Source of the DNA: a virus
Lineage: Duplodnaviria; Heunggongvirae; Uroviricota; Caudoviricetes
DNA: 35,090 nt
Reading direction: 5' to 3' (one strand)
IMG/VR virus record: IMGVR_UViG_2671180963_000003
Each line of letters begins with the position of its first letter. Position 1 is the first letter of the stretch. The position numbers and the translations under genes were made by a program. The notes beneath the pieces were generated by a model. It saw nothing but the letters and a program-made list of their open reading frames with translations, did no database searches and was not told the DNA's origin. Of this stretch, positions 1,038 through 33,477 are shown in pieces.

Positions 1038-2000
1038 TTAAGCTGCTTTGCGAACGTCGAACACATTTTCGAACGCATCAAAAACTTTAACTGTCATTAA
1101 ATCGATGAATTGAACGGAAGAACCATTTTTCTTAATCAGGTATTTGTTCCATTCTGCAACGTCTGCAACAGTACGCTTTTCGTTAAGCAGAATCCAAAGA
1201 GCTTGTTTGTCTTTAGATTCAACCGCTTGAGTAAAGAAGTCTTTAGATTCAACTTCCCGATCTGCTTCAACAGCAACCGGAGCAACTTCTTTAGCTTTCA
1301 GTTCTTCAATCTCAGCTTTCTGTGCTTCGATGATCTGGTCTTTTTCTTTCAGTGCAGCTTTCAGTTCTGCGATCTGTGCTTCCAGTGCAGAGAAACGATC
1401 TTCAACAGCAACCGGAGAAACAGCATTAACCTGTGCTTCCAGTTCTACGAAAGCGTCGCAAGATTCAATACGTGCTTTTTCTTCACCTTCATATGCAACC
1501 AGTTCTACTACTTCTTTCTCAGTAGCGTGGCTGTTAAAGAATACAGCAAAGTAAGGATTGCCGGATTTGGTGAAGTTCAGTTTAGCTTTTCCGGTAACTT
1601 CTTTACGACGACCAAAGGTAATGTTGCAATCAGCGGTATCCTGAAAATCCATGTTAGGAGCGGAAACGATAGCAGTATCACCAGCAATCACTAGGTGGAA
1701 CAGTTCAGAAGAGTTCTTAACGGTGAAAGTAACGATGTGGTCTACTGCAACGTCTTTAGCAGGTTTAACGCGGTCGATTGCTTTACGAATGCCGTTAGGC
1801 AGTTTACCGTCAACACCAAAGCCAGCCGCGATCAGTGCTTCACGATGTGCTTTAAAGCCAGCGAAAGCGGATTTCTGCTGCGCAAAGGAAACATGAGCAA
1901 CAACTTTCGGCTGAATCTTCTTGTTTGCTTCGGTGCCAAATTTGATAACTGCTTTAGCGTTGGTTACTTCGTTAGTGAAAAAGTTAGCGGAAAATAACAT
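1038..2000 (-). CDS. hypothetical protein with a central coiled-coil segment, function unknown
   Basis: 320 aa ORF, AGGAG Shine-Dalgarno upstream on the minus strand; N-terminal domain, central A/E/K-rich coiled coil (AQIAELKAALKEKDQIIEAQKAEIEELKAKE), C-terminal domain; no family recognised by eye. Confidence 0.55.
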   Translation of the reverse strand: MLFSANFFTNEVTNAKAVIKFGTEANKKIQPKVVAHVSFAQQKSAFAGFKAHREALIAAGFGVDGKLPNGIRKAIDRVKPAKDVAVDHIVTFTVKNSSELFHLVIAGDTAIVSAPNMDFQDTADCNITFGRRKEVTGKAKLNFTKSGNPYFAVFFNSHATEKEVVELVAYEGEEKARIESCDAFVELEAQVNAVSPVAVEDRFSALEAQIAELKAALKEKDQIIEAQKAEIEELKAKEVAPVAVEADREVESKDFFTQAVESKDKQALWILLNEKRTVADVAEWNKYLIKKNGSSVQFIDLMTVKVFDAFENVFDVRKAA

Positions 2001-2114: not shown

Positions 2115-2294
2115 TTAACAAACTTGAACGTTAATCTTTACCTGAATTTCGTATTTCTTCATTAGCTTGTAGAATCCGCTTCTATCAATTCCTTCCTTCT
2201 TAAAGAAGTTTTCCCCGCCTCGCTCAGTGTCGCTGTAAAAGCGTTTAGCAATATCAACAATCATTTCACGAGTGAACTTAACAGGTCTAGCCAT
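2115..2294 (-). CDS. small HTH DNA-binding protein (paralog of 5690..5917)
   Basis: ATG at 2294 with GAGGA 9 nt upstream; the ORF track began at an upstream GTG. Motif RPVKF...DIAKRFY...GIDRSGFYKLMKKY aligns with the 76 aa protein RPARF...DIAYAYY...GISIAQFYKNMKKL. Confidence 0.5.
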   Translation of the reverse strand: MARPVKFTREMIVDIAKRFYSDTERGGENFFKKEGIDRSGFYKLMKKYEIQVKINVQVC

Positions 2295-2395
2295 CAGTCG
2301 ATTCCTCACATGTGGATTAATAATTTCTTAAAAAGAGCATTTCGCTCTGAACACTTGTATTTATAAAATGATTTTCAGAAAACCCTGTAAAACCA

Positions 2396-2411
2396 CTGTA
2401 TATCCGATCAG
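2396..2411. promoter_or_regulatory. LexA (SOS) box-like site CTGT-N8-TCAG
   Basis: CTGTATATCCGATCAG; matches the CTGT-N8-ACAG consensus with one mismatch; abuts a candidate leftward promoter. Confidence 0.35.
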
Positions 2412-2480
2412 TGGGAGCACGAATTGCTAAAGAGAAGATTAATTATTAATCAATTCGTACAATATTCAACCGAAAAAGCA

Positions 2481-2496
2481 CTGTATATCTAACCAG
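2481..2496. promoter_or_regulatory. LexA (SOS) box-like site CTGT-N8-CCAG
   Basis: CTGTATATCTAACCAG; the first 12 nt are nearly identical to the site at 2396. Confidence 0.35.
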
Positions 2497-2498
2497 TG

Positions 2499-2514
2499 CT
2501 GTATGAATTAGCAG
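2499..2514. promoter_or_regulatory. LexA box-like site CTGT-N8-GCAG
   Basis: CTGTATGAATTAGCAG, immediately adjacent to the previous site. Confidence 0.25.
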
Positions 2515-2635
2515 TGAATCAGGAGATTTTCAGAAGTGAACAATCATTTCACACATGTATTTATAACGTGGAAATTCTTGCTTATCATCTATATGGGGAC
2601 TGTTTAGAAAATTTCAACCCCCACCAGTGAGAAAA

Positions 2636-2664
2636 AGTATAAAATAATCCTTGACAGTTGTCAA
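2636..2664 (-). promoter_or_regulatory. sigma70-like leftward promoter (TTGACA-17-TATACT)
   Basis: On the minus strand, TTGACA (2664..2659), a 17 nt spacer, TATACT (2641..2636); the -35 is one half of the palindrome TTGACAgtTGTCAA (2651..2664). Confidence 0.5.
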
Positions 2665-2859
2665 TACACTTGACCCAAGCGAGAAATGACTATCAAAATT
2701 TTTGTTTGAAAATGGTAGATCAGGATTATCAACCTTTATAACCTATTATAGCACGGAGACCTTTTGACAATTCTTTTTAAATCATTAACTTACGCCACTT
2801 TTTGGTGATTTTTTGATTAAATAATATACAAGAATTTTCTATCAAAATATTTGATGGGA

Positions 2860-3056
2860 ATTGCCCCTGAAATTCTGAATTTTTGCCCCCGAATAAAATC
2901 CCCAAGATTCTACTATCCCATTTTTGCCCCTGAAACCTACTATTTTTGCCCCTGAAATTCTGGGAAACAGTGATTTTGCCCCTCATTTTTGCCCCTGAAA
3001 TGCCAATAATTGCCCCTGAAAATCTAATTTTTGCCCCTGAAATTTGCCCCCGAAAA
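2860..3056 (+). repeat. array of about 9 direct repeats of TTGCCCCTGAAA (variants TTGCCCCCGAA) plus one inverted copy near 3100
   Basis: Copies start near 2860, 2883, 2924, 2946, 2977 (truncated), 2988, 3010, 3031 and 3045; GGGGCAAAA in inverted orientation at about 3100; an AT-rich segment precedes the array at 2800-2858. Confidence 0.8.
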
Positions 3057-3459
3057 GGATTGGTGAGAAAAACTCTTTATAAAACATTAAATTAGTGAGG
3101 GGCAAAAGCGGGTGATGCGGCGTACATAGATATTATATAACACATTCGCTACGCTCATGTGTAAAACTAAAAACAACAAATAACCAGAAAGATATTAGGA
3201 GGGCTTTAGCCCGACTGCGCGAAGCGCCAACCAATTGCTTCTAGTAACAACTAATTTAAACTAGATGATACTAGATGGTCTTAGAAGGAATTAACTAGTT
3301 TGCTCGCTCGCTTCGCTCACTCTCAAACGTCTGCGACGCCACTGCGTGGCATCGAGAATCACTTCTGAAAGGATTTTCTCGAAAGGGATTTTAAACTAGT
3401 TACTAACTGATTCTAGAAAGATAGTAATAATCACTTTAATGATCATGAAAGGTATTGGT

Positions 3460-3488
3460 ATCCCTTCGGGATTGCAACCTTCGGTTGC
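3460..3488 (+). other. two tandem short hairpins with CTTCG loops (possible RNA structure or weak terminators)
   Basis: ATCCcttcgGGAT and GCAACcttcgGTTGC in tandem, followed by a T-rich tract. Confidence 0.3.
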
Positions 3489-3686
3489 TAAATTGCTTCC
3501 TGATTATTATTTCTCCAAAAGAAAGATTCTTATATTCTAAAGATACTTCTTCGTTTTGACGATGATTTAATCAAAAATCATGAAGGAGGCGAAGCCGACT
3601 GAATCCAATCACCTTTCATAATAACAAGAATTTTCTCTTTATAAATAATATTAGATTGATTCACTTTCTTTTTAGAGGATACCACT

Positions 3687-4127
3687 ATGATCAATACTAA
3701 AACTCCTTTCGTACTTCTGGGTCTGGACTCTGAAAACTACGGCAACTTCCATATGCTAGAAGTTTTCGCTAATCGTGGTTATAACATCATTCGTCATTCC
3801 GAAGACTCCAACTACTCAACTGCTTTCTACGCTTTAAAACGAAATGGTCGTCCTACTGTGATCATCGACTGTCTTACTGATGAAGGTCGTCTTCAATACA
3901 ACGATATTCCAGCAATTATTGTTCGTGATGACCTGCCGTTTGATGTTCGTGAATACGACGTTGATTTAGGCTCTTACTATGGGATCGCCGATCTTGACCA
4001 GATTATGGCTGATTACGGTAAAGAAACCGCTCAGGAAGCCCCGGAAGATGACGAAGACTACGCTCCAATCTGTTTCTCTTCTCAGAATGGCTTCTACGGT
4101 TACGATGAAGGCTTAGATATGCTGTAA
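3687..4127 (+). CDS. strongly acidic early protein, function unknown (possible DNA-mimic/anti-restriction candidate)
   Basis: 146 aa ORF, AGAGGA Shine-Dalgarno; about 27 Asp/Glu versus about 10 Lys/Arg; first rightward gene after the large control region. Confidence 0.55.
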   Translation: MINTKTPFVLLGLDSENYGNFHMLEVFANRGYNIIRHSEDSNYSTAFYALKRNGRPTVIIDCLTDEGRLQYNDIPAIIVRDDLPFDVREYDVDLGSYYGIADLDQIMADYGKETAQEAPEDDEDYAPICFSSQNGFYGYDEGLDML

Positions 4128-4247: not shown

Positions 4248-4397
4248 ATGAAAGAATTTACCATCACTAAATCCCTGTATGACTGGACTGTTAAAATCTC
4301 CGGCAAAACCGTTTCTGTAACCCCTAGCCATGTAGAAAATGATTGGGTGTATCCCGTGAAACTATCTCCCGTAGTATGCATGTTCCGTTTGATCTGA
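4248..4397 (+). CDS. small ORF (49 aa), hypothetical
   Basis: ATG at 4248 downstream of the promoter; weak Shine-Dalgarno; absent from the ORF track because of its size; overlaps the next ORF by 22 nt in another frame. Confidence 0.25.
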   Translation: MKEFTITKSLYDWTVKISGKTVSVTPSHVENDWVYPVKLSPVVCMFRLI

Positions 4398-4579
4398 TGT
4401 CCTTAACTGGTATTCATGCAATGCTGGAAGTTCGCGAGCAATTCGAAGCTGGTAATCACAATGCAACTCCAGTTAGCAATCACCTTCTTACTAATGAAGA
4501 ACGTGAAATCATCGAAAACTGGCGTTATGAATATGCGATTCCTTATTATGAAGAAGACCAAGTAGAAATCGATTGGTAA
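4376..4579 (+). CDS. small acidic protein, hypothetical
   Basis: ATG at 4376 in the frame of the 4343..4579 track ORF (which starts at a TTG); no clear Shine-Dalgarno, so it may be translationally coupled or frameshifted to the preceding small ORF. Confidence 0.35.
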   Translation: MHVPFDLMSLTGIHAMLEVREQFEAGNHNATPVSNHLLTNEEREIIENWRYEYAIPYYEEDQVEIDW

Positions 4580-4668: not shown

Positions 4669-5496
4669 ATGAATACTGTTACCGTTATGAATACTGCTAA
4701 AACTGCTTCCGTGTCTCTGGTTGTTGATAACACCAAACCGCTGACCATGTCTTCTCGTCAGATCGCTGAATTTGTTGATAAGCGCCATGATAACGTTGTT
4801 CGCGATATTCGTAAGATGCTGAACGAGTTAGAAAAAGATGTCCTCAAATTTGAGGGCATCTATCTTGACCAATATGGACGCGAGAAAATCGAATATCACT
4901 TAGACGAAGAAATGACTCTGACTCTTGTCACTGGTTACGATGTTAAGCGTCGAATGATCGTTATTCAGGAATGGAAGCGACTGAAAGAAGAAAATGAAAA
5001 ACTGCGTTCTCAGCAAATCAACCCTTACGCAAACATGACTAAGCTCGACTGGATTCGTGAGGCAATGGAATTGGAAGCCGCAAACGAACAACTGATTCAA
5101 GAAAAGAAACAACTGGTTGAATTGCATGTTCGTAAAGCTATCGACACACACAGTCTTAGCCGCTTATTAGGCGAAAAACGAGGCTCTACGACGGTACAAA
5201 TGATTCTGAAAGGTTTATGTGCTGCTGGTGTTCTTGAGCGTCGTCTGGATGCTTCTGGTAAGCCTAAAGGCTATGATCTGCTTCCTCCTGGCTATATGTT
5301 CGCTCGTATGTCGGCACACGGTCAGATCGAGTTCACTGCTGATGCTATCCCGCATCTCGTAAAACTCGGATTGCTTGAAGAAGAAAAGGCCGCAACTTTG
5401 AAATTGCCACAGCCGAACAACTCACGAGCAATCATTAATAACACTGCTTTGCTGATTCGTCAGAATGCTGGCTCTCTGGAAGTCTTCGGACTGTAA
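4669..5496 (+). CDS. Rha-family phage regulatory protein (antirepressor-like)
   Basis: N-terminal motif LTMSSRQIAEFVDKRHDNVVRDIRKM resembles the Rha domain signature as recalled from memory; 275 aa; AAGGGG Shine-Dalgarno. Confidence 0.6.
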   Translation: MNTVTVMNTAKTASVSLVVDNTKPLTMSSRQIAEFVDKRHDNVVRDIRKMLNELEKDVLKFEGIYLDQYGREKIEYHLDEEMTLTLVTGYDVKRRMIVIQEWKRLKEENEKLRSQQINPYANMTKLDWIREAMELEAANEQLIQEKKQLVELHVRKAIDTHSLSRLLGEKRGSTTVQMILKGLCAAGVLERRLDASGKPKGYDLLPPGYMFARMSAHGQIEFTADAIPHLVKLGLLEEEKAATLKLPQPNNSRAIINNTALLIRQNAGSLEVFGL

Positions 5497-5504
5497 TAAT
5501 TTTT

Positions 5505-5529
5505 GCCCCTGAATTTCAGGGGCTTTTTT
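5505..5529 (+). terminator. rho-independent terminator built from the repeat motif
   Basis: GCCCCTG-aattt-CAGGGGC followed by TTTTTT immediately after the Rha-like gene; the stem contains the same GCCCCTGAA motif as the repeat array. Confidence 0.7.
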
Positions 5530-5689
5530 GTATCTGTAGATGCGCTGAACTTTAAGCGCATCCCTCCAGATTTGGATGCATCTATAGATCAGTCCAGATT
5601 TGGACTCAACTTAGAGATGAGCGCAGTTTTGCGCCGATTGTTTTACATACAAAAAAGCCACTCCGAAGAGTGGCAAAGAGAATCAAAAC

Positions 5690-5917
5690 TCAAAAACCTG
5701 TTGCTTCTACGATCTGACCATCACCGATCTGAACATAGAATTTAATGTCTAACTTCTTCATATTCTTATAGAATTGGGCGATTGAGATCCCATGTTCACT
5801 AAGAATCTGTTCTTTCGCTTCCTTACCACGATCCGCTGTATAATAAGCGTAGGCAATATCAGCCATTTGTTCAGCGTTAAAACGGGCAGGGCGACCGCGA
5901 GTAGCTTTAGTAGTCAT
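5690..5917 (-). CDS. small HTH DNA-binding protein (paralog of 2115..2294)
   Basis: Likely start ATG at 5917 (GGAG 9 nt upstream) rather than the track's GTG at 5950; ends with a Hin/resolvase-like HTH, GISIAQFYKNMKKL. Confidence 0.5.
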   Translation of the reverse strand: MTTKATRGRPARFNAEQMADIAYAYYTADRGKEAKEQILSEHGISIAQFYKNMKKLDIKFYVQIGDGQIVEATGF

Positions 5918-5952
5918 AGTCATTTTCTCCAAATTAAAGTGAATGTTCACCT

Positions 5953-6555
5953 TTATTTAGAGGACTTACATTTTATCGGAAAAAGTTCTCCATCGTCAAC
6001 CGACATAAAGAACTCTGCCTTAATCCCGTACTTCTTCAACCGTGAATAGTATGTACCCCGACTAATATCAACCTTGCGAAGCACTTCAAAGAACCCTTTA
6101 GGATCGTTGTAATAGTGGCTATAACGCACGTTAGCGAGTTCAACGAATAGTTCCCTTGTATCACCATAGCCTTTCTTGAAAGCCTCGTTACGATAGCGTG
6201 TAATTGCGTGATTCAATCTCTTCTGTTTCAACACTTCTCGGATCGGCTTCCACTGCAACCGATAGATAGGACCGTCATCAATGCGATAATAACGCTTGAT
6301 ATCAAAATCAAACCAATCTCGGACTCTCCGAAACTCTGTATGCGATGTTCTATGCTTCTTAAAGAAGTTGTGAACGTCTGTATAACCATTATCACGGTAA
6401 AATTCTATTAAAATCTCTTTCGCTTCCTCACGGCTAAAACCGGATGTTGTGTAATCAGTCTTTAAGTGCTTATGTTTTACTGGCAAACGATATTCATGAT
6501 CGGTACAAGACAAGGCTAATTCTAATTCATCTCTTTGTTGCTGATTAATTAGCAT
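5953..6555 (-). CDS. basic protein with HTH-like segments, function unknown
   Basis: 200 aa, AAGGGGG Shine-Dalgarno; C-terminal [16 protein letters not shown] resembles the HTH of the two small paralogs; antisense to the flanking Rha-like and terminase genes. Confidence 0.55.
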
Positions 6556-6642: not shown

Positions 6643-8550
6643 ATGAAACTAATTTCTAATAAGGCCAAATTAAAAAAGATTCTCAAAAATGCAGCCAAAT
6701 ATATTACGCCACCGCCTAAACTCCTTCCATCGGAATGGTGCGAAGCTAATATGGTGCTGGTAGATGGTCCTCAAGCTGGGGATAAAGTTAAATTGCTGTC
6801 ATTCCAGAAAGGTATGATTGATGCTCCTTTCCTTGAGAACAAGAAAAAGTATGTTCTGATGACCAGTGCGCAGATCGGAAAGACTACCATCTTGAACGGC
6901 ATCCTGTTTAACCAGATGGCTAACGATCCATGCAATATGATTATCGGACAATCAACCGCTAAAGAAATGTCTCAATATCTCGCTGGTAAGATCCGACCGT
7001 CTATCGAAGCATGTGATGCATTAAAAGACGTGGTTACAGACAAGAATGATCGCAATGCGGTTAACAACAATAACCAGCTACAGCTAAAAACGAATCACTT
7101 CCTGTACATGGTATCGCTAACCAGTCCATCGACCCTGCGCGGTAAGACTGCAAAGGTCGGACTACTAGACGAAATCGATGCTGCTACAGCCTCAGAAGAA
7201 GGTGATCCGGTGGCACTGGCTGCTAACCGTTTAACTACCTTTGGCGACGAAGGCCGATTAGTCGTATCCAGTACCCCGACCAGTAAGCTGGGAAGCATTA
7301 ACCAGCAATGGTTATCAAGCGATATGCGTATGTTTTTTGTTCCGTGTCCTCATTGCGGGGAACACCAGGTGATCGAGTGGGAAAACGTTCAATTTGAATG
7401 GCGTAACATCGATGGTAAGAACTTACCCGATCCTGATACCGCTCGTTATATTTGCCCCCACTGTAAGAACGCATGGACAGAAGGAGAGCGGATCAGGGCG
7501 GTGGCTGCTGGTGAATGGCGAGTAACCCGTGAAAGTGAAGTAGCCGGATTCTGGATCAGCCGTCTGTATTCACCATTCAGCACGATCCGCGCTTGTGTGG
7601 TTGATTTTAGTCATGCGTGGCAATCCTTTGATCTACAATCATTTTATAACACCGTGTTAGGCAAGGTATACGACGATCAGGACACGGCAGTAGAAGCAAA
7701 TGAACTGGAACAACTCAAAACAGATGTTTCTATCGAGAATATCCCTGATGACGTGATTTTCTTGTGTTCAGGAATTGACCAGCAATTGGACCGCGCAGAA
7801 TCTACCATCTTAGGTGTAGCGAAAGATAAGGTTTACATTCTGGATCACCGCAGCTTTTACGATCATAACTGTGAACGATATGAATCACCTGTTTGGGATC
7901 GCCTGGTTAACTTCAAGAAAACCAAATTCTATAACGTTAATGGTGAACGTGTACCAATGCTCGCCAGCTTCCTTGATACATCGAACGGTCGATTCACTCA
8001 AGCCGGATACCGTATTTGCGGCAAGTGGAAGAATCTACACGCGATCAAAGGTAGTTCATCTGGTAATGCTCCAGTGATTCCGGTTAAACCTACCCGCACA
8101 GGTGGTCATGAATTGCTTATGCTGGGTGTTAACGTTGGTAAATCCGCTGTTCGTGAAATGCTGGTTAGAAACCTGAAAGATAATCCTCATATTGGCTTAG
8201 AAATATCAGAAACCGTTCCTGATGATTATCTCGATCAGCTTTTGAGTGAATCCATCAAGCGTACTACTACTGGCGTGCGTTGGGTGAAAAATCCAGGTAG
8301 TACCCGAAACGAGGCTCTCGACTGTCTGGTTTATAGCTATGCTGCTTCTCGCTACGTTCTTTCAAAAATGTCATGGGATAAACTCATTGCAATGAAAGAC
8401 AGCTTAAACCGTGTTGTCGAAGAATCCGTAGAAGCTCCTAAATCGCAATCTGACGAGCAAATAGAAGAAACTAAGCCAATCACACGACCACAACGTCAAA
8501 ACATCGCCAGACGTCCAAATAGAGGCCGTAGCTGGGTAACATCGTTCTAA
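6643..8550 (+). CDS. terminase large subunit (lambda GpA-like)
   Basis: 635 aa; Walker A-like SAQIGKTT near residue 75; paired Cys motif CPHCG...CPHCKNAW typical of GpA-type terminases; sits at the head of the morphogenesis module; GAGGG Shine-Dalgarno. Confidence 0.8.
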
Positions 8551-14495: not shown

Positions 14496-17400
14496 ATGCA
14501 GTCGATCCAATTTAAACGAACAAATGTTTCTGGCAAAAAACCAACGCCGGAACAATTACAGGTCGGTGAGGTAGCAATCAACCTTAAAGACCATGTTATT
14601 TTTACCAAAGACCGAGATCATGAAGTAGTTCAAATCTCTGTTTCTCCTGAAACTCACGCGGCACTAGAATCTAAAGTTGATGCTAACAAACAAGAACTGG
14701 ATAGTACAATTGCAGTAAATGACCGCAATATTCACGCTAAAGTAGATGAAATTAAACAAACTACTGATGCAACCATCGCAGCAAATCACGTAGAAATTAA
14801 CAATAAAGTTGATGTAATTAAACGCGAAACCGACGCGACAATCGATGCCAATAAAAATAAAGCTGCTTCCGACCTTGCTGGTGTTAAAGCTGAATTGTCG
14901 GATACTATCAACGCTAATAAAAATGCGGCTGCTGTAGCAACACAGGAACTGGACACCCGCATCAATAAAAAAGTTGATGATATTAAATCCCGTACCGATG
15001 CAACCATCGCAAGCAATGACAAAGCAATCAATGACAAGGTTGATTTGATTAAGGCCGAGACTGATCGGACTATCGCAGCAAATAAAGCCTATGCGGAAAA
15101 TCAGTTAACTGACACCTACAATAACCTTACTGGTGTGATTGCAGCCAATAAGCAAGAGGCAGCGGATAACGTCGCAGCATTAACCCGTGATGTTGAAGCC
15201 AAAAATTCAGCAATTCATAGCAAAGTTGACAATAACAAGTCTTACACCGATTCCGAACTTGCACGTTTAGAAAGCCGTATTGATGCAGCCGATGGATCTA
15301 GTGACGGTAAGTACATCAAAAAACACGTAAACACTTATACTGATGGTTATTTGCTGTCTAAGACCGCAAACTATTTTGATGATCCAGGTGCTCGTAATCT
15401 TGATTACTTTGGTGCATTCCGTACCAATGATCTAGCTGATCATATTGCAATGATCTTGCATGTTCCGCACCCATCCGGTGTTAATCATGCTCGTGGTTTT
15501 GAGTTCACTTATGGGTCTAATCCACATGCTACGGTAAGAACATACGGCTATGATGAATTGGGTCATTTGGCATATTCTCACCGCATGTATCATGAAGGTG
15601 ATAAACCTACTCCTGCCGAAATTGGCGCATATTCGAAAGCAGAAATTGACCGACTGTTCCAGAAGACGCTTAATTTTGGTATCGAGGGTGGTTGGTTTAA
15701 ACTAGGCACTTTGACAATGCCACAACAACACGGTCGCACCGCTAAGATTCGTTTGGTTGGTGGTAACGGTTATAACGTCGGACAGAATGGACAAGCCAAT
15801 GTTATTGAACTGGTGATCCGTTGCGGCAACAATAGCCCGAAAGGTGTTGTATTCAATGCTTATTATAGCATTTGGTATTACGAACAATATTTTTGCGCAA
15901 TTCCTACCGATGGCGATAATTACGATCTTTACGCTTACTACGGTGCACATACAGGATTTGTTTTAGCAGAATATCAAGTTTCGTCCGGTGGTGTTTCTTT
16001 AAACCTGTTGGATACTCCTGAATATCTGGGTGGTGAAAAACCTGTTGCAGATGAAATTTTTGATGCTCTTAACATTTCATCATTCAATAACTTTAGCAAC
16101 CGTGGAACGTTAAATTTTGGTGGAAACCATCAAGGCCAATATGACATTGAGCATTTGAACGAACAACAAACAAATGCTAAGAAAAAGTTGCGTCGCTTCC
16201 GTAGTTCCGCACCCGCTACTATCTGGCATGAAACTGTAGATGATCAGAATTATCGTCTTGCTACTGGATACGATGATGTAAACCAACAATTATTGCTGTC
16301 GGCTGCATCCGGTTTGCATATTCGTAGAATGACCATTGATGGCGGTTTAGGTGGAAACTCAGCAATTGATTTTCGTCGTGGTCCAAATGAATCATGTCAT
16401 TTAAACTTCTTTGATTATCGCACTGGTACAGATGTTCGTAATGGCTGGTTTGGCTTCGGTGATGGTCAGACCAAAGATTTTATTTGGTGGAACGACAACG
16501 GTCAAAACTCTATAAACCTGATTGAAGACGGTGAATTACATATTACTGGCGGTAGAGGCCAGAAAATTGTAATGAATAGCGAAGTGGCATTATCTGAAAA
16601 TGCTCGTTTGGCTGTCAAAGGTGGTAACTATGGTTTAATCCTTCGTAATGATGGTTCTAGCTTCCATATTCTTACTACCGATTTAAAAGATTCCTTTGGG
16701 ACGTGGAACACTCGTAGACCATTTAGTTATGATTTCGCCGAAGGTGGATTAGATCTAGGTGGCACAGCTACCGCACGCTGTTTACATCTGGGAATTGATG
16801 GTAGCACCCGCATCGAAGATAATATGGTGTTTAGATCAGGGTCTCGTCAGTCAATGGACTATATTGAATTAATCCATTGGGGTAACAGTAATACAGGACG
16901 CAATAACGTTTTGAGTATGCGAGATTCCAAAGGTTTCTTGGCTGAATTTGAACGCGTGGGGGGTACTAACGGCGTTAAAACCAGATTCTTTGGCGAAACA
17001 TTCACTGATGGTACATTATACCTAAATCAGATGAATAATAGCTCTGAACGATTCTCTATTAATAATTGGGGAAATTCAGAAGTTGGTCGCGCGGCAGTAA
17101 TGGAAGTTGGCGATTCCAAAGGTTATCACTTCTATACTGAACGTAGGACAGATGACACCGTTTTATTTGATGTATCTGGTGCTTTGACCGTGCATGGACC
17201 TAACGGAATAACCGTCAAAAACTCAACTGGTGCACGCCATATCTGGTTTAGAGATGATAGCGATACGGAAAAGGCTGTTATCTGGGCTACAGATGAGGGT
17301 ATTTTACATATTCGCAATAACCACGGTGGACAATTTACACATCACTTCCAGGGCGCGATGATTAAACTGGAAGGGCGTGTTCCTTATGCCGCAGATCAAG

Positions 17401-18020
17401 GACTTATCCGTGGTGAGGTTTCTGGTGGTGCATATGTTGCATGGAGAGACCGACCTGCTGGTTTGTTGGTTGACTGTCAACAAAGCGTTGATAGTGCTCA
17501 TGCTATTTGGAAAGCGGTTGATTGGGGGCGTAACTACATCGCTGCTATGGACGTTCATTGTCCCGGTGATAGTAATAATACTGCGGCAGCGGTTCTTCAT
17601 GTTCAGGGTGCTGATTATCAATTCCATGCAAGTGGAGAATTTCATGCCACTGGTAACGGAAACTTTAACGATGTTTATATTCGTTCCGATCGTCGTCTGA
17701 AAATTAATGTTGAAGATTACGAAGAAAATGCGGTGGATAAGGTAAATAAACTCAAAGTTAAAACCTACGATAAAGTTAAATCTCTTAATGACCGAGAAGT
17801 TATAGGTCATGAGATTGGTATTATCGCACAGGATTTACAAGAGGTATTACCGGAAGCTGTTAAAACCGCAAAAATTGGTGGTTTTGATAACCCAGAAGAA
17901 ATTTTAACAATTTCAAACTCCGCAGTGAACGCGCTTTTAATTAAAGCGGTCCAAGAAATGAGCGAAGAAAATAAACTTCTTCGTGAACGTCTTGCTGCAA
18001 TTGAAGCTAAATTAGGGTAA
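14496..18020 (+). CDS. tail fibre with C-terminal intramolecular chaperone (S74-like) domain
   Basis: 1174 aa. N-terminus MQSIQFKRTNVSGKKPTPEQLQVGEVAINLKDHVIFTKD resembles the T4 gp37-type fibre N-terminus from memory; repeated KVDxIKxxTDATIxAN units; WGNSEVGRAAVMEVGDSKGYHFYTERR resembles a T-even fibre domain; C-terminal DRRLKINVEDYEE...IAQDLQEVLPEAV...coiled coil resembles the self-cleaving chaperone of endosialidase/T5 pb1-type fibres. Confidence 0.8.
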   Translation: MQSIQFKRTNVSGKKPTPEQLQVGEVAINLKDHVIFTKDRDHEVVQISVSPETHAALESKVDANKQELDSTIAVNDRNIHAKVDEIKQTTDATIAANHVEINNKVDVIKRETDATIDANKNKAASDLAGVKAELSDTINANKNAAAVATQELDTRINKKVDDIKSRTDATIASNDKAINDKVDLIKAETDRTIAANKAYAENQLTDTYNNLTGVIAANKQEAADNVAALTRDVEAKNSAIHSKVDNNKSYTDSELARLESRIDAADGSSDGKYIKKHVNTYTDGYLLSKTANYFDDPGARNLDYFGAFRTNDLADHIAMILHVPHPSGVNHARGFEFTYGSNPHATVRTYGYDELGHLAYSHRMYHEGDKPTPAEIGAYSKAEIDRLFQKTLNFGIEGGWFKLGTLTMPQQHGRTAKIRLVGGNGYNVGQNGQANVIELVIRCGNNSPKGVVFNAYYSIWYYEQYFCAIPTDGDNYDLYAYYGAHTGFVLAEYQVSSGGVSLNLLDTPEYLGGEKPVADEIFDALNISSFNNFSNRGTLNFGGNHQGQYDIEHLNEQQTNAKKKLRRFRSSAPATIWHETVDDQNYRLATGYDDVNQQLLLSAASGLHIRRMTIDGGLGGNSAIDFRRGPNESCHLNFFDYRTGTDVRNGWFGFGDGQTKDFIWWNDNGQNSINLIEDGELHITGGRGQKIVMNSEVALSENARLAVKGGNYGLILRNDGSSFHILTTDLKDSFGTWNTRRPFSYDFAEGGLDLGGTATARCLHLGIDGSTRIEDNMVFRSGSRQSMDYIELIHWGNSNTGRNNVLSMRDSKGFLAEFERVGGTNGVKTRFFGETFTDGTLYLNQMNNSSERFSINNWGNSEVGRAAVMEVGDSKGYHFYTERRTDDTVLFDVSGALTVHGPNGITVKNSTGARHIWFRDDSDTEKAVIWATDEGILHIRNNHGGQFTHHFQGAMIKLEGRVPYAADQGLIRGEVSGGAYVAWRDRPAGLLVDCQQSVDSAHAIWKAVDWGRNYIAAMDVHCPGDSNNTAAAVLHVQGADYQFHASGEFHATGNGNFNDVYIRSDRRLKINVEDYEENAVDKVNKLKVKTYDKVKSLNDREVIGHEIGIIAQDLQEVLPEAVKTAKIGGFDNPEEILTISNSAVNALLIKAVQEMSEENKLLRERLAAIEAKLG
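14676..15080 (+). repeat. imperfect tandem ~66-69 bp repeats within the fibre gene
   Basis: At least four consecutive units encoding (H/N/K/D)KVD(E/V/D/L)IK(Q/R/S/A)(T/E)TD(A/R)TI(A/D)(A/S)N; a coding repeat, not a separate element. Confidence 0.6.
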
Positions 18021-31748: not shown

Positions 31749-33428
31749 TTAAATTCCAAATTCCTGTAATGGACCTGGTATTTCCTCTTCTGGTTTCCAG
31801 TTCTTATCTGTCAGCATGTCTAAACATGGATGCAGAACAAGCCCGTTGCTCTCCAGAATCTGCCTATCATTGATAGTTTTCAAATCAATGAATATCCGGC
31901 CTTTCCTCGTTCCTCTTGAATTTTCTATTACAACTCTCTGGGTCTTTCCATCGATGTATTCCAGTACAAACAAGTTTTTGTTTCTGTCAATCCTGCTACA
32001 CCCGATCCGCTTTAGAGCTTGCTTAATCTTAAACCGGACCTTTAGTCGTTCCTCGTTATAAACATCTTCTAAATCAAATTCTGCGAGCTTCTCCCAGCCT
32101 TGAGAGTCCACAGAATACATTTCCTCTTCTGCCATCTTGATCTGATTGTAGAGTGTTTCACGCTCGCTATTGAGGGTAGTAATCTGATCGGCTAGCTCCT
32201 TCGTTGCTCCTGTCATAGCAGAAAGGGCAATCAGGTTATCAATCTTGCGTGATATTTCATCAACCTGTACTTTCAAAGCCGGAACCGGATTAGCCTTGTC
32301 CTCAGCAATCCAGATTTTATCAGCCAGCAATTGCAATACAGCTTTCTCTAATTGATCACCTCGAAAACTCCAGTTTGGATGCTCGCAATCAAGTCTACGT
32401 GAACGGGTCGCATCACATGTATAACGATACTGGTCAGAACGTTTGTTCGTTCCCTTCACTTTAACCATAGCGCAACCGCAATGATCACATTTCAATAGGC
32501 CAATACCACTAAGCAGGGGGATCGGTTTAACTTCTTCCTTCTCTCCAAAGTTCCATGCTCTAGCACCAATATTTTTCTTAAGGTGATAGAACGTAGCATC
32601 ATCAATAACACGAGGGTAATAATCCTTTAACTCATAGTTAACGCCATCTACAGAGACTTCCTTGATACCAATCAAAGCGCGGGTATGGAACAACCTTTCA
32701 ACCATTGCCCGTGACCATTTTGAATGCTTCTTGTTGCTTACTGCTGGTGGCGGTGTATATGTCTCGTTAAGGTGATCCAGTATTTCGGCGGTTGAACGTC
32801 CATTCTTCCGTAATTCCACAATCTCCTGAACAACAGGGAAGTACACCGGATGAGGCAACACATAACCGGAAGTGGTATCAGTCCACCACATATTCTTTCC
32901 AACTTCCTCGATAGCCACTGCCGGATTTTGTGGATTTTCTTGATGAGCTTTAATCTTAATCAATGCGCTTGAGTTAGTACGATTGCGCTTAGTCTGGCTT
33001 TCCTCATTACCACGGATGAATAAAAGGATGGAGAACATCAGGTCCATCGGGTTAGCGGTAACAGTATCCAGCGAGTAGATCTTGTTATCCATGCCAGTAA
33101 CAATGGTTATTCCCCTACGGATGATTGAAAGGAATAACTCCTGCGCACTGACAATATCGGCACGGGATAAGCGGTCCAAGTTTTCAATGAATAGCCAGCT
33201 ACCAACAGGAACGGATCTACCAATTGCATCAAGGAAACGAGATAGCGCCCCTGTTTTAGAGTTAGCACCCTTAAACGCAGATACACCCAGATCCTGATAA
33301 TCATTTACCAGTTCAAGGTCATACTTTGTCGCAACCTCTCTCGCCATCCTGATTTGTCGTTCATAACTCGAACCATCATTCTGACGCATAGACGAGAAGC
33401 GAATATACGAATACAGTTTAGTTTTCAT
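31749..33428 (-). CDS. large serine recombinase (integrase-like)
   Basis: N-terminal YSYIRFSSMRQ...ERQ and DRLSR resemble the serine recombinase catalytic motifs; Cys cluster CDHCGCAM...C..C; C-terminal coiled coil; 559 aa from ATG 33428 (the track began at an upstream TTG). Confidence 0.8.
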   Translation of the reverse strand: MKTKLYSYIRFSSMRQNDGSSYERQIRMAREVATKYDLELVNDYQDLGVSAFKGANSKTGALSRFLDAIGRSVPVGSWLFIENLDRLSRADIVSAQELFLSIIRRGITIVTGMDNKIYSLDTVTANPMDLMFSILLFIRGNEESQTKRNRTNSSALIKIKAHQENPQNPAVAIEEVGKNMWWTDTTSGYVLPHPVYFPVVQEIVELRKNGRSTAEILDHLNETYTPPPAVSNKKHSKWSRAMVERLFHTRALIGIKEVSVDGVNYELKDYYPRVIDDATFYHLKKNIGARAWNFGEKEEVKPIPLLSGIGLLKCDHCGCAMVKVKGTNKRSDQYRYTCDATRSRRLDCEHPNWSFRGDQLEKAVLQLLADKIWIAEDKANPVPALKVQVDEISRKIDNLIALSAMTGATKELADQITTLNSERETLYNQIKMAEEEMYSVDSQGWEKLAEFDLEDVYNEERLKVRFKIKQALKRIGCSRIDRNKNLFVLEYIDGKTQRVVIENSRGTRKGRIFIDLKTINDRQILESNGLVLHPCLDMLTDKNWKPEEEIPGPLQEFGI

Positions 33429-33440
33429 ACCATTTCCAAA

Positions 33441-33477
33441 CAAAAACGCCCCTACCGCGTATTATAACGATAGGGGC
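33441..33477 (-). terminator. rho-independent terminator (minus strand) upstream of the recombinase
   Basis: GCCCCTA(c)CG ... CG(a)TAGGGGC hairpin with a U-run on the minus strand; the loop contains TTATAAT. Confidence 0.5.

Follow-up and report, generated by a model that had tools for sequence, protein, structure and literature searches.

In phage lambda, direct, phased sites for a phage-encoded protein, O, lie beside an AT-rich tract (PMC7466680); the N-terminal domain of O sets its specificity, the C-terminal part is the effector, close relatives differ in specificity, and the O initiator is handled by ClpXP (PMC7466680, PMC3983244). Iteron plasmids (F, P1, pSC101, R6K, and RK2; Rep_3-type) have in-phase direct repeats about two turns apart, an AT-rich unwinding element, an inverted copy nearby, and a single element-encoded initiator that acts on the host replisome and is subject to chaperone/Clp remodelling. 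The origins of Staphylococcus aureus pathogenicity islands (SaPIs) carry clusters of short iterons (5- to 8-bp core) on both sides of an AT-rich center, with opposed copies, and each SaPI Rep is strictly specific for its cognate ori, with specificities that vary from one related element to another (PMC9371898). The locus described here shares features with all three. It lies in a 35,090-nucleotide stretch of DNA (the window; IMG/VR record IMGVR_UViG_2671180963_000003), which is a nearly complete temperate prophage of ∼36 kb with a serine integrase, and consists of an array of nine direct repeats (2861-3055) and the gene for p320, a protein of 320 amino acids (1038-2000, minus strand). Sequence comparison identifies the array as genuine, selected, and type specific; it is predicted to bind protein, and its partner is the orphan protein p320. 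In predicted function, the pair would be a variation on the known iteron-initiator theme, and the reading that we prefer, at about even confidence, is that the array is the iteron part of a lytic replication origin and p320 is its initiator.

The array was originally predicted from the sequence alone as nine direct copies in the main non-coding region beside an AT-rich tract, and all of these elements were found. The 12-mer TTGCCCCTGAAA, with up to two mismatches, occurs 13 times in the window, an elevation over shuffled sequence (3.18 ± 1.53; none of 100 shuffles reached 13), and eight of the 13 matches fall within 2861-3055. The 7-nucleotide core TTGCCCC has nine plus-strand copies in 2861-3050 and only two others on that strand in 35 kb. 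The nine direct copies start at 2861, 2883, 2924, 2946, 2976, 2989, 3010, 3031, and 3044, all on the plus strand, with the consensus (A/T)TTTTGCCCCTGAAA; three are the variants CCCCCGAAT, CCCCTCATT, and CCCCCGAAA. Successive copies are 22, 41, 22, 30, 13, 21, 21, and 13 bp apart. The predicted recurrence every 21 to 23 bp thus holds insofar as spacings are mostly 21 to 22 bp, but the spacing is irregular, ranging from 13 to 41 bp. The copies are phased at ∼10.6 bp (mean resultant length of 0.70 at 10.5 bp and 0.83 at 10.7 bp), and all nine lie on one helical face.

The single inverted copy that had been placed downstream is present at 3096-3107 on the minus strand (TGAGGGGCAAAA as read on the plus strand and TTTTGCCCCTCA on the minus strand), 40 nucleotides past the last direct copy. 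It is degenerate in one related locus (L001), and arrays of other types likewise end in inverted copies. The spacer that separates the inverted copy from the direct repeats (3056-3095) has 25% GC, compared to 41.7% for the window, and is a candidate unwinding element. A second AT-rich tract (2775-2860; 22% GC) adjoins the array directly on its left and is kept in most Escherichia coli relatives regardless of repeat type. The whole is placed in a 1.4-kb gene-free gap (∼2295-3686) between divergent genes; the repeats are therefore intergenic, 860 bp from the p320 gene, and they are asymmetric, with a core of 12 to 14 bp. A 69-amino-acid open reading frame (ORF) across the array (2777-2986, minus strand) was dismissed as a by-product of the repeats. 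A clustered regularly interspaced short palindromic repeat (CRISPR) array was also rejected, since the repeat is only 12 to 14 nucleotides long, the spacing is irregular (13 to 41 bp), and there is no cas gene.

Arrays with TTGCCCCTGAAA and the core TTGCCCC (type A) are found in the window, in further E. coli genomes, and in Salmonella. In an alignment of the type-A arrays from E. coli and Salmonella, every copy has its counterpart, with identities of 97.2% in the repeats, 91.7% in the inverted copy, and 52.7% in the spacers (Fisher P = 2e-32), and on this comparison each repeat copy is under selection. The number of copies is itself variable: the A-type array of E. coli UTME-9 (L021, 5843-6136) has 14 copies instead of 9, via a 107-bp internal duplication. 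Array copy number varies through unequal crossing-over, from 9 to 14, and we count this in favor of an origin.

The array and ∼250 bp to its right form a type-specific cassette of 500 bp (2858-3356) that is replaced as a unit. Coverage in Megablast alignments is interrupted at query positions 557 and 1058, the flanks in relatives are 88 to 97% identical, and the replacement cassettes always hold another array of similar layout with another motif (CCTACAC, TCCCCG, CCCAAGATT, ATCCCTA, TTTGCCCCTC, TTGTCCGTGA, or GATGTACAAG). Among 5426 complete E. coli genomes, 34 carry the A cassette and 18 the B cassette. Type B has about nine copies of AAACCTACACTA (CCTACAC), and type C has about twenty copies of TCCCCG in two clusters with an 11-bp period around an AT-rich spacer. 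The type D unit is CCCCAAGATTC, and type E, from Proteus, has fifteen copies of ATCCCTAG in three clusters. Further arrays consist of TTTTTGCCCCTC and TTTTTGTCCGTGAAA in Salmonella and of GATGTACAAG in an IMG/VR contig. In both types C and E, repeat clusters with an 11-bp period flank AT-rich spacers, with inverted copies, and the inter-cluster spacers of the two types have ATGATTTTAAATG in common. Foreign units also occur in or at the edges of arrays, namely, a type D unit (CCCCAAGATTC, 2900-2910, plus strand) inside the 41-bp gap of the A-type array of the window, B units in L003 and L021, and a D unit in L015, and these point to recombination within arrays.

Repeat type covaries with the N-terminal domain of p320 (N-domain; residues 1 to 170, nucleotides 1491-2000). 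The two types agree in all 35 loci that have both parts (12 from E. coli, six from Salmonella, Providencia, and Proteus, and 17 others, comprising 16 from IMG/VR and the UTME-9 RefSeq locus L021), although not all of these loci are independent, and the agreement spans seven cross-checked types and four genera. In the 12 E. coli loci, clusters of the first 180 residues of the protein encoded at the p320 position coincide exactly with the motif types, N-terminal identity being at least 87% within a type and ∼20% between types. Across the wider set, divergence is graded: N-domains that are 76 to 78% identical keep TTGCCCCTGAAA, one with 52% identity goes with TTTGCCCCTC, and one with 36% identity goes with TTGTCCGTGA. 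Similarly, a Providencia N-domain 67% identical to that of E. coli type B keeps CCTACAC. Profile-profile comparison detected no homology between the A-clade and the B/C/F-clade N-domains, which indicates that the reading domain was replaced rather than merely diverged. Comparison with related phage genomes had been proposed as a check on the original prediction; in it, the repeats are conserved between E. coli and Salmonella and the cassette is swapped together with the p320 N-domain.

Neighboring genes do not follow this pattern. Among the 12 E. coli loci, three sequences each cluster differently from the motif: the last 70 residues of p320, the gene for a helix-turn-helix (HTH) protein that lies between p320 and the array, and the gene for p146 (3687-4127; 146 amino acids). 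Because the intervening HTH gene, the p320 C-terminal domain (C-domain), and p146 assort independently, the pairing of array and N-domain, as read from these sequences, survives recombination. Paralogous HTH proteins had been put forward as candidate binders, but the HTH gene next to the array (2115-2294, minus strand) falls into two clusters (∼53% identity), each of which occurs with both A and B arrays; HTH clusters thus cut across repeat types, and the suggestion was not sustained. The p146 gene was rejected as array partner in the same way, its clusters cutting across repeat types. A protein that joins an ORF6N domain to the C-terminal half of p320 (P0123) was not accepted as proof of a domain swap, as it is a singleton from a 1.5-kb metagenome contig that may be a chimera.

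The protein p320 has a basic N-domain, a coiled coil (∼196-237), an acidic linker, and a small C-domain that ends in -RKAA. It had no match in Pfam, PHROGs, or NCBIfam, no fold match (including no winged helix and no WH1-WH2 fold), and no NTPase motif or domain. A HMMER search of 1.84 billion representatives returned only 12 clusters of relatives, all of them the same prophage protein, and on this basis p320 falls outside every known initiator, repressor, or terminase family. An AlphaFold model built from 14 sequences (mean pLDDT of 72.8) has an N-domain (residues 1 to 155) of alpha/beta plus beta-meander structure, a long helix (196 to 237), and, beyond an acidic linker modelled as disordered, a small C-domain made of helices. 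For the window, the predicted pI of the N-domain is 9.6 and that of the remaining sequence 4.6; across types, the N-domain pI is 9.2 to 9.8 in eight of 10 types examined, with the remainder of the protein at 4.1 to 5.1. These features fit a predicted DNA-binding head on an oligomerizing, partner-recruiting body. At a few loci (L004, 8540-8880; L009; and L039, 5300-5790), two large leftward-operon proteins occur with two repeat families. There, TCCCCG(T/C) or GATGTACAAG tracks the first protein and CCCCGGTATTAG, i.e., CCCCGG(T)ATTAG, tracks the second; the second proteins of L039 and of L004 and L009 are homologous.

Measured against strain GN4741, the window extends from ∼0.9 kb inside attL to ∼40 bp before attR, and its genes include those for the serine integrase (31749-33443, minus strand), a gpA-type large terminase (TerL; 6643-8550), and an M15 endolysin. 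The prophage is present in 58 of the 5426 complete E. coli genomes (∼1%), where every copy is chromosomal and integrated inside ycdX or hicB, and the family also occurs in Salmonella, Providencia, and Proteus. The non-coding region (2300-3700) had no match in 50,697 phage records. Searches of viral contigs with three p320 homologues and of one-genome-per-species contigs with TerL found no relatives, nor was the prophage family found in the literature searched. These data also bear on a plasmid-type centromere, for which p320 would be the partition adaptor. The type C and E clusters do resemble parC of plasmid R1, in which clustered direct repeats with an 11-bp period flank a spacer. However, the copies found are all integrated in the chromosome by a serine integrase, the non-coding region had no match in 72,556 plasmids, and no ParA/ParM/TubZ-type gene was found in the prophage, so that a centromere is very improbable. 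Of the three functions first listed for the array, an origin is the best supported.

Family searches of the entire prophage, from attL to attR, found no recognizable replication protein (helicase, loader, primase, or polymerase), no CI-type repressor, and no small terminase, including beside the gpA-type TerL. Several lines of argument favor an origin. First, the phage must replicate, and p320 and the array are the only candidate pair in its genome. Second, the early genes conserved across genera encode the HTH protein, p320, Rha, hth86 (86 amino acids; 5690-5950, minus strand), and p200 (200 amino acids; 5953-6555, minus strand), and among these p320 alone has a cognate DNA array. Third, the sites avoid promoters, are spaced by one or two helical turns, and adjoin AT-rich DNA, which is the likeness to an origin.

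The position of the promoters was deduced from pattern matches. To the left of the array, the HTH gene (2115-2294), p320 (1038-2000), and p113 (670-1011) form a leftward operon on the minus strand; the rightward genes start at 3687 with p146. The HTH gene is the first of the operon and encodes 59 amino acids, its start (MARPVKF) being set from RefSeq homologues. The operon has a near-consensus sigma-70 promoter, TTGACA-17-TATACT (2636-2664, minus strand), ∼200 bp left of the array, and this promoter is also found in type B, type C, and Proteus loci. Its −35 element is covered by a perfect palindrome, TTGACAGTTGTCAA (2651-2664), which is a likely operator; the dimeric regulator that it would serve may be the HTH protein encoded next to it. 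Immediately upstream of p146, ∼570 bp from the arrays, is a second candidate promoter, which is weaker. Pattern scans of types A, B, C, and E found no above-background promoter overlapping any array.

The last gene of the leftward operon encodes a 113-amino-acid coiled-coil protein, p113, which ends in GLRLVA. It and its positional equivalents in 14 loci (e.g., L002, 6443-6685; L004, 5680-6681; L010, 1839-2699; L039, 2225-3316; and L019, 4927-5160) range from 68 to 363 amino acids, have a coiled coil, and are otherwise unrelated between loci, but 12 of the 14 end in LR(L/I/V)VA, nine of these with RP or KP before TLR, and the other two, 68-amino-acid Salmonella proteins (L014 and L020), end in TLRMAA or TLRLAA. 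The ClpX-binding (XB) tail of SspB is RGGRPALRVVK (PMC3983244), which these endings closely resemble. In addition, most p320 variants end in -AA although their C-domains are unrelated. The termini suggest that the phage may encode its own ClpX adaptor, p113, with the array-binding p320 as its substrate. If so, they would parallel ClpXP-labile lambda O, and by this analogy we count them toward an origin.

We propose the following mechanism for initiation. Upon induction, the strong leftward promoter (2636-2664) would express the HTH protein, p320, and p113. The p320 protein would oligomerize through its coiled coil and fill the nine phased sites and the inverted site, and its binding would bend or wrap the DNA and open the AT-rich DNA at 3056-3095 or 2775-2860. 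The exchangeable acidic C-terminal module could then recruit host replication proteins. Finally, ClpX(P) may remodel or remove the p320 complex, as with lambda O; this step is suggested by the -AA end of p320 and the SspB-like tail of the co-transcribed p113. A bolder version, which we advance only tentatively, is that p320 and its non-homologous positional equivalents constitute a new class of initiator, timed by a ClpX adaptor, that alone recruits the E. coli replisome to an iteron origin. In such an initiator, a coiled coil would link a DNA-reading domain of orphan fold to short docking modules at the C terminus, both domain and modules being exchangeable; its adaptor would be the co-transcribed protein ending in RPTLRLVA, and the target of the adaptor would be the -AA end of p320.

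The closest described systems differ from this locus in several respects. Lambda has four to six iterons of 19 bp with internal dyad symmetry inside the O gene, whereas the window has nine asymmetric sites of 12 to 14 bp in an intergenic gap; p320 matches neither the Phage_rep_O family nor a winged helix, and the prophage has no P-like loader. Unlike iteron plasmids, the window lacks a WH1-WH2 fold and conserved DnaA boxes, its inverted copy is not at the promoter of the initiator, and the element is an integrating phage. Types C and E look very similar to the Rep-ori of SaPIs and other phage-inducible chromosomal islands (PICIs) and to the RepA-ori of PICI-like elements (PLEs), and the window itself has the same order of direct array, 40-bp AT-rich spacer, and inverted copy. 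However, SaPI Rep is a self-loading helicase (AAA+/SF3) in which a winged helix recognizes the iterons, while p320 has neither an NTPase domain nor a winged helix, and SaPIs and PLEs are phage satellites, while the element here is a complete phage.

A number of observations weigh against an origin. Origin function rests on anatomy and elimination, p320 is of no known fold, and no helicase loader is evident in the prophage. No DnaA box is conserved across types, the one box-like site being found in type A only, and a scan for the consensus of integration host factor (IHF) found nothing conserved near the array. Conservation of the left AT-rich tract does not extend to L003, L021, or the Salmonella loci. 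Diversity of specificity is equally typical of immunity regions, and the double lysogen UTME-9 carries an A-type and a B-type prophage with identical Rha, hth86, p200, and TerL. Apart from these points, the only conserved match in a scan for the Fis consensus was a degenerate Fis-like site to the left of the array.

The last two points lead to the alternative of an immunity or regulatory operator array, in which p320, as a repressor or regulator specific to each type, would coat the array and from there silence or control the distant divergent early promoters; the different specificities, of which there are at least seven, would then correspond to heteroimmunity types. Swapped specificity modules in otherwise near-identical temperate phages are a classic signature of immunity regions, and the array and p320 are exchanged among such phages here. 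The A-type and B-type prophages of UTME-9 coexist while differing in p320 and array, HTH cluster, and p146, and no recognizable CI-like repressor is found elsewhere in the prophage. The Mu c repressor binds about nine sites over 200 bp; like other repressors of its type, it binds DNA through its N-terminal domain, which is followed by a coiled coil and a C-terminal tail with a link to ClpXP. The layout of p320 is alike, and the O1-O3 operators of Mu c and the sites of omega of pSM19035 likewise comprise many short repeats over ∼200 bp. Those operators, however, overlap the promoters that they control, whereas the arrays of types A, B, C, and E miss both the leftward and the p146 promoters (pattern matches only), and the DNA-binding fold of p320 is different or orphan. 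The 9 to 21 sites, spaced by one or two turns beside AT-rich spacers, are more typical of an origin, and a ClpX-tethering tail on p113 together with the -AA end of p320 would be expected to destabilize a maintenance repressor. In UTME-9, the HTH gene also differs between the two prophages, so that p320 is not the sole candidate immunity determinant. Moreover, an operator would leave the phage without any origin candidate. We consider the operator array possible but rather doubtful.

A packaging site (cosB- or pac-like) would make p320 the missing small-terminase-type subunit for the gpA-type TerL, and several features are consistent with this. No recognizable small subunit adjoins TerL (6643-8550), the layout of p320 (DNA-binding N-domain, oligomerizing helix, and C-terminal module) is like that of small terminases, and to the right of the array, at a distance of 90 bp, there is a GC-rich hairpin element (3197-3227). 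Short repeats are clustered in lambda cosB and P1 pac as they are in the array, and the likeness to cosB with gpNu1 and to P1 pac extends to a type-specific recognition protein and to the placement of the array between a GC-rich element and the gene of its binder. However, p320 is not beside TerL but 4.6 kb away on the opposite strand, under a sigma-70 early-type promoter. The TerL proteins of the window and L001 are 99% identical, while their p320 C-domains are unrelated (∼10% identity), and metagenomic and IMG/VR contig ends have no common terminus here. This lack of covariation between p320 C-domain and TerL and of a shared contig terminus weakens the packaging hypothesis, which we judge unlikely. 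The HTH paralogues beside TerL are equally good candidates for the small subunit. An HTH unit, (G/A)RPxKF...FYK.MKK, is found in three paralogues, encoded at 5953-6555 (where it occurs twice), 5690-5950, and 2115-2294, all on the minus strand; two of the three genes diverge from the large terminase gene, and these terminase-side paralogues may be packaging recognition proteins.

The repeat motif was also noted early on in the stem of a terminator, and this terminator, which follows Rha at 5503-5529 (ATTTTTGCCCCTGAATTTCAGGGGCTTTTTT, 5499-5531), is indeed a palindrome of the A-type repeat. It shares up to 18 nucleotides with the repeat and its flank, an identity too long for chance. A functional tie between the two did not hold up, since the terminator also follows Rha in relatives with CCTACAC (type B) and CCCAAGATT (type D) arrays and is absent from three loci with a TTGCCCCTGAAA array, being missing in L003 and the Salmonella A-type phages. 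As the terminator is independent of array type, the identity is historical and lies outside the specificity system. For the same reason, among others, we regard as far-fetched the idea that the array acts as RNA, the repeats in its transcript offering targets or decoys to an RNA or to the hairpin of the Rha terminator, as in P4-type RNA immunity. The identity over up to 18 nucleotides between the repeat with its T-tract and the 5' arm of the terminator, and the downstream hairpins with compensatory changes, would agree with it. Against it, no predicted promoter reads into the array, the covarying partner is a protein domain, and the terminator does not covary with array type. The Rha-family gene itself (4669-5496) is the most variable early gene, its copies being 39 to 66% identical to that of the window even where neighboring genes are 95 to 100% identical.

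Several further elements lie to the right of the array. Two copies (3197-3227 and 3580-3604) of a conserved element comprise AGGAGG, a short GC hairpin, and GACTG, and among relatives the stem shows compensatory changes (GGGC/GCCC, GGCC/GGCC, CGGC/GCCG, TGGC/GCCA, and GGC/GCC). No ORF is conserved across the element, which could be cos, a structured RNA, or a signal in single-stranded DNA. The very stable mini-hairpin GCGAAGC occurs seven times in the window, three of them in 3190-3610. At 3460-3488, adjacent C(TTCG)G-loop hairpins (ATCCCTTCGGGAT and GCAACCTTCGGTTGC) follow the motif GAAAGGTATTGG; they have no Rfam match, other GC hairpins take their place in L005, L019, and L020, and their sequence suggests a structured plus-strand transcript. 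Neither tRNA genes nor known RNA families, at gathering or permissive thresholds, were found. Between the array and the p146 promoter (3361-3458), a second family of conserved motifs, (T)TCTAGAAAGG and TCACTTTAA(T/A)G, occurs in all genera and with all array types. This family forms a perfect palindrome, CCTTTCTAGAAAGG, in Providencia and Proteus (on the right side of the L015 and L016 intergenic regions) and is a candidate set of operators for a conserved regulator.

Two observations concern other parts of the prophage. A 110-amino-acid gene of relatives is split in the window (4248-4579) into overlapping ORFs (4248-4397 and 4343-4579), probably by a frameshift or sequencing error. The tail-fiber gene (14496-18020) is 77 to 92% identical in nucleotide sequence to gp37 (distal long-tail-fiber) genes of T4-like phages, and 80 to 92% to those of T-even phages, which indicates recent exchange between this temperate phage and virulent T-even phages.

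This prophage lineage has no annotated replication, repressor, or small-terminase gene, and the pairing of array and p320 offers a first experimental handle on the start of replication or on immunity in these phages. The matched set of domains and motifs is clean material for the study of a new sequence-specific DNA-binding domain, and the roughly eight natural protein-motif pairs would, if the pairing is true, amount to a recognition code for a new DNA-binding fold. The pairs may also be useful as orthogonal origin or operator parts and for testing the possible phage ClpX adaptor. If the array is an origin, the cloned fragment is expected to serve as a decoy and so to block specifically those phages that share its type.

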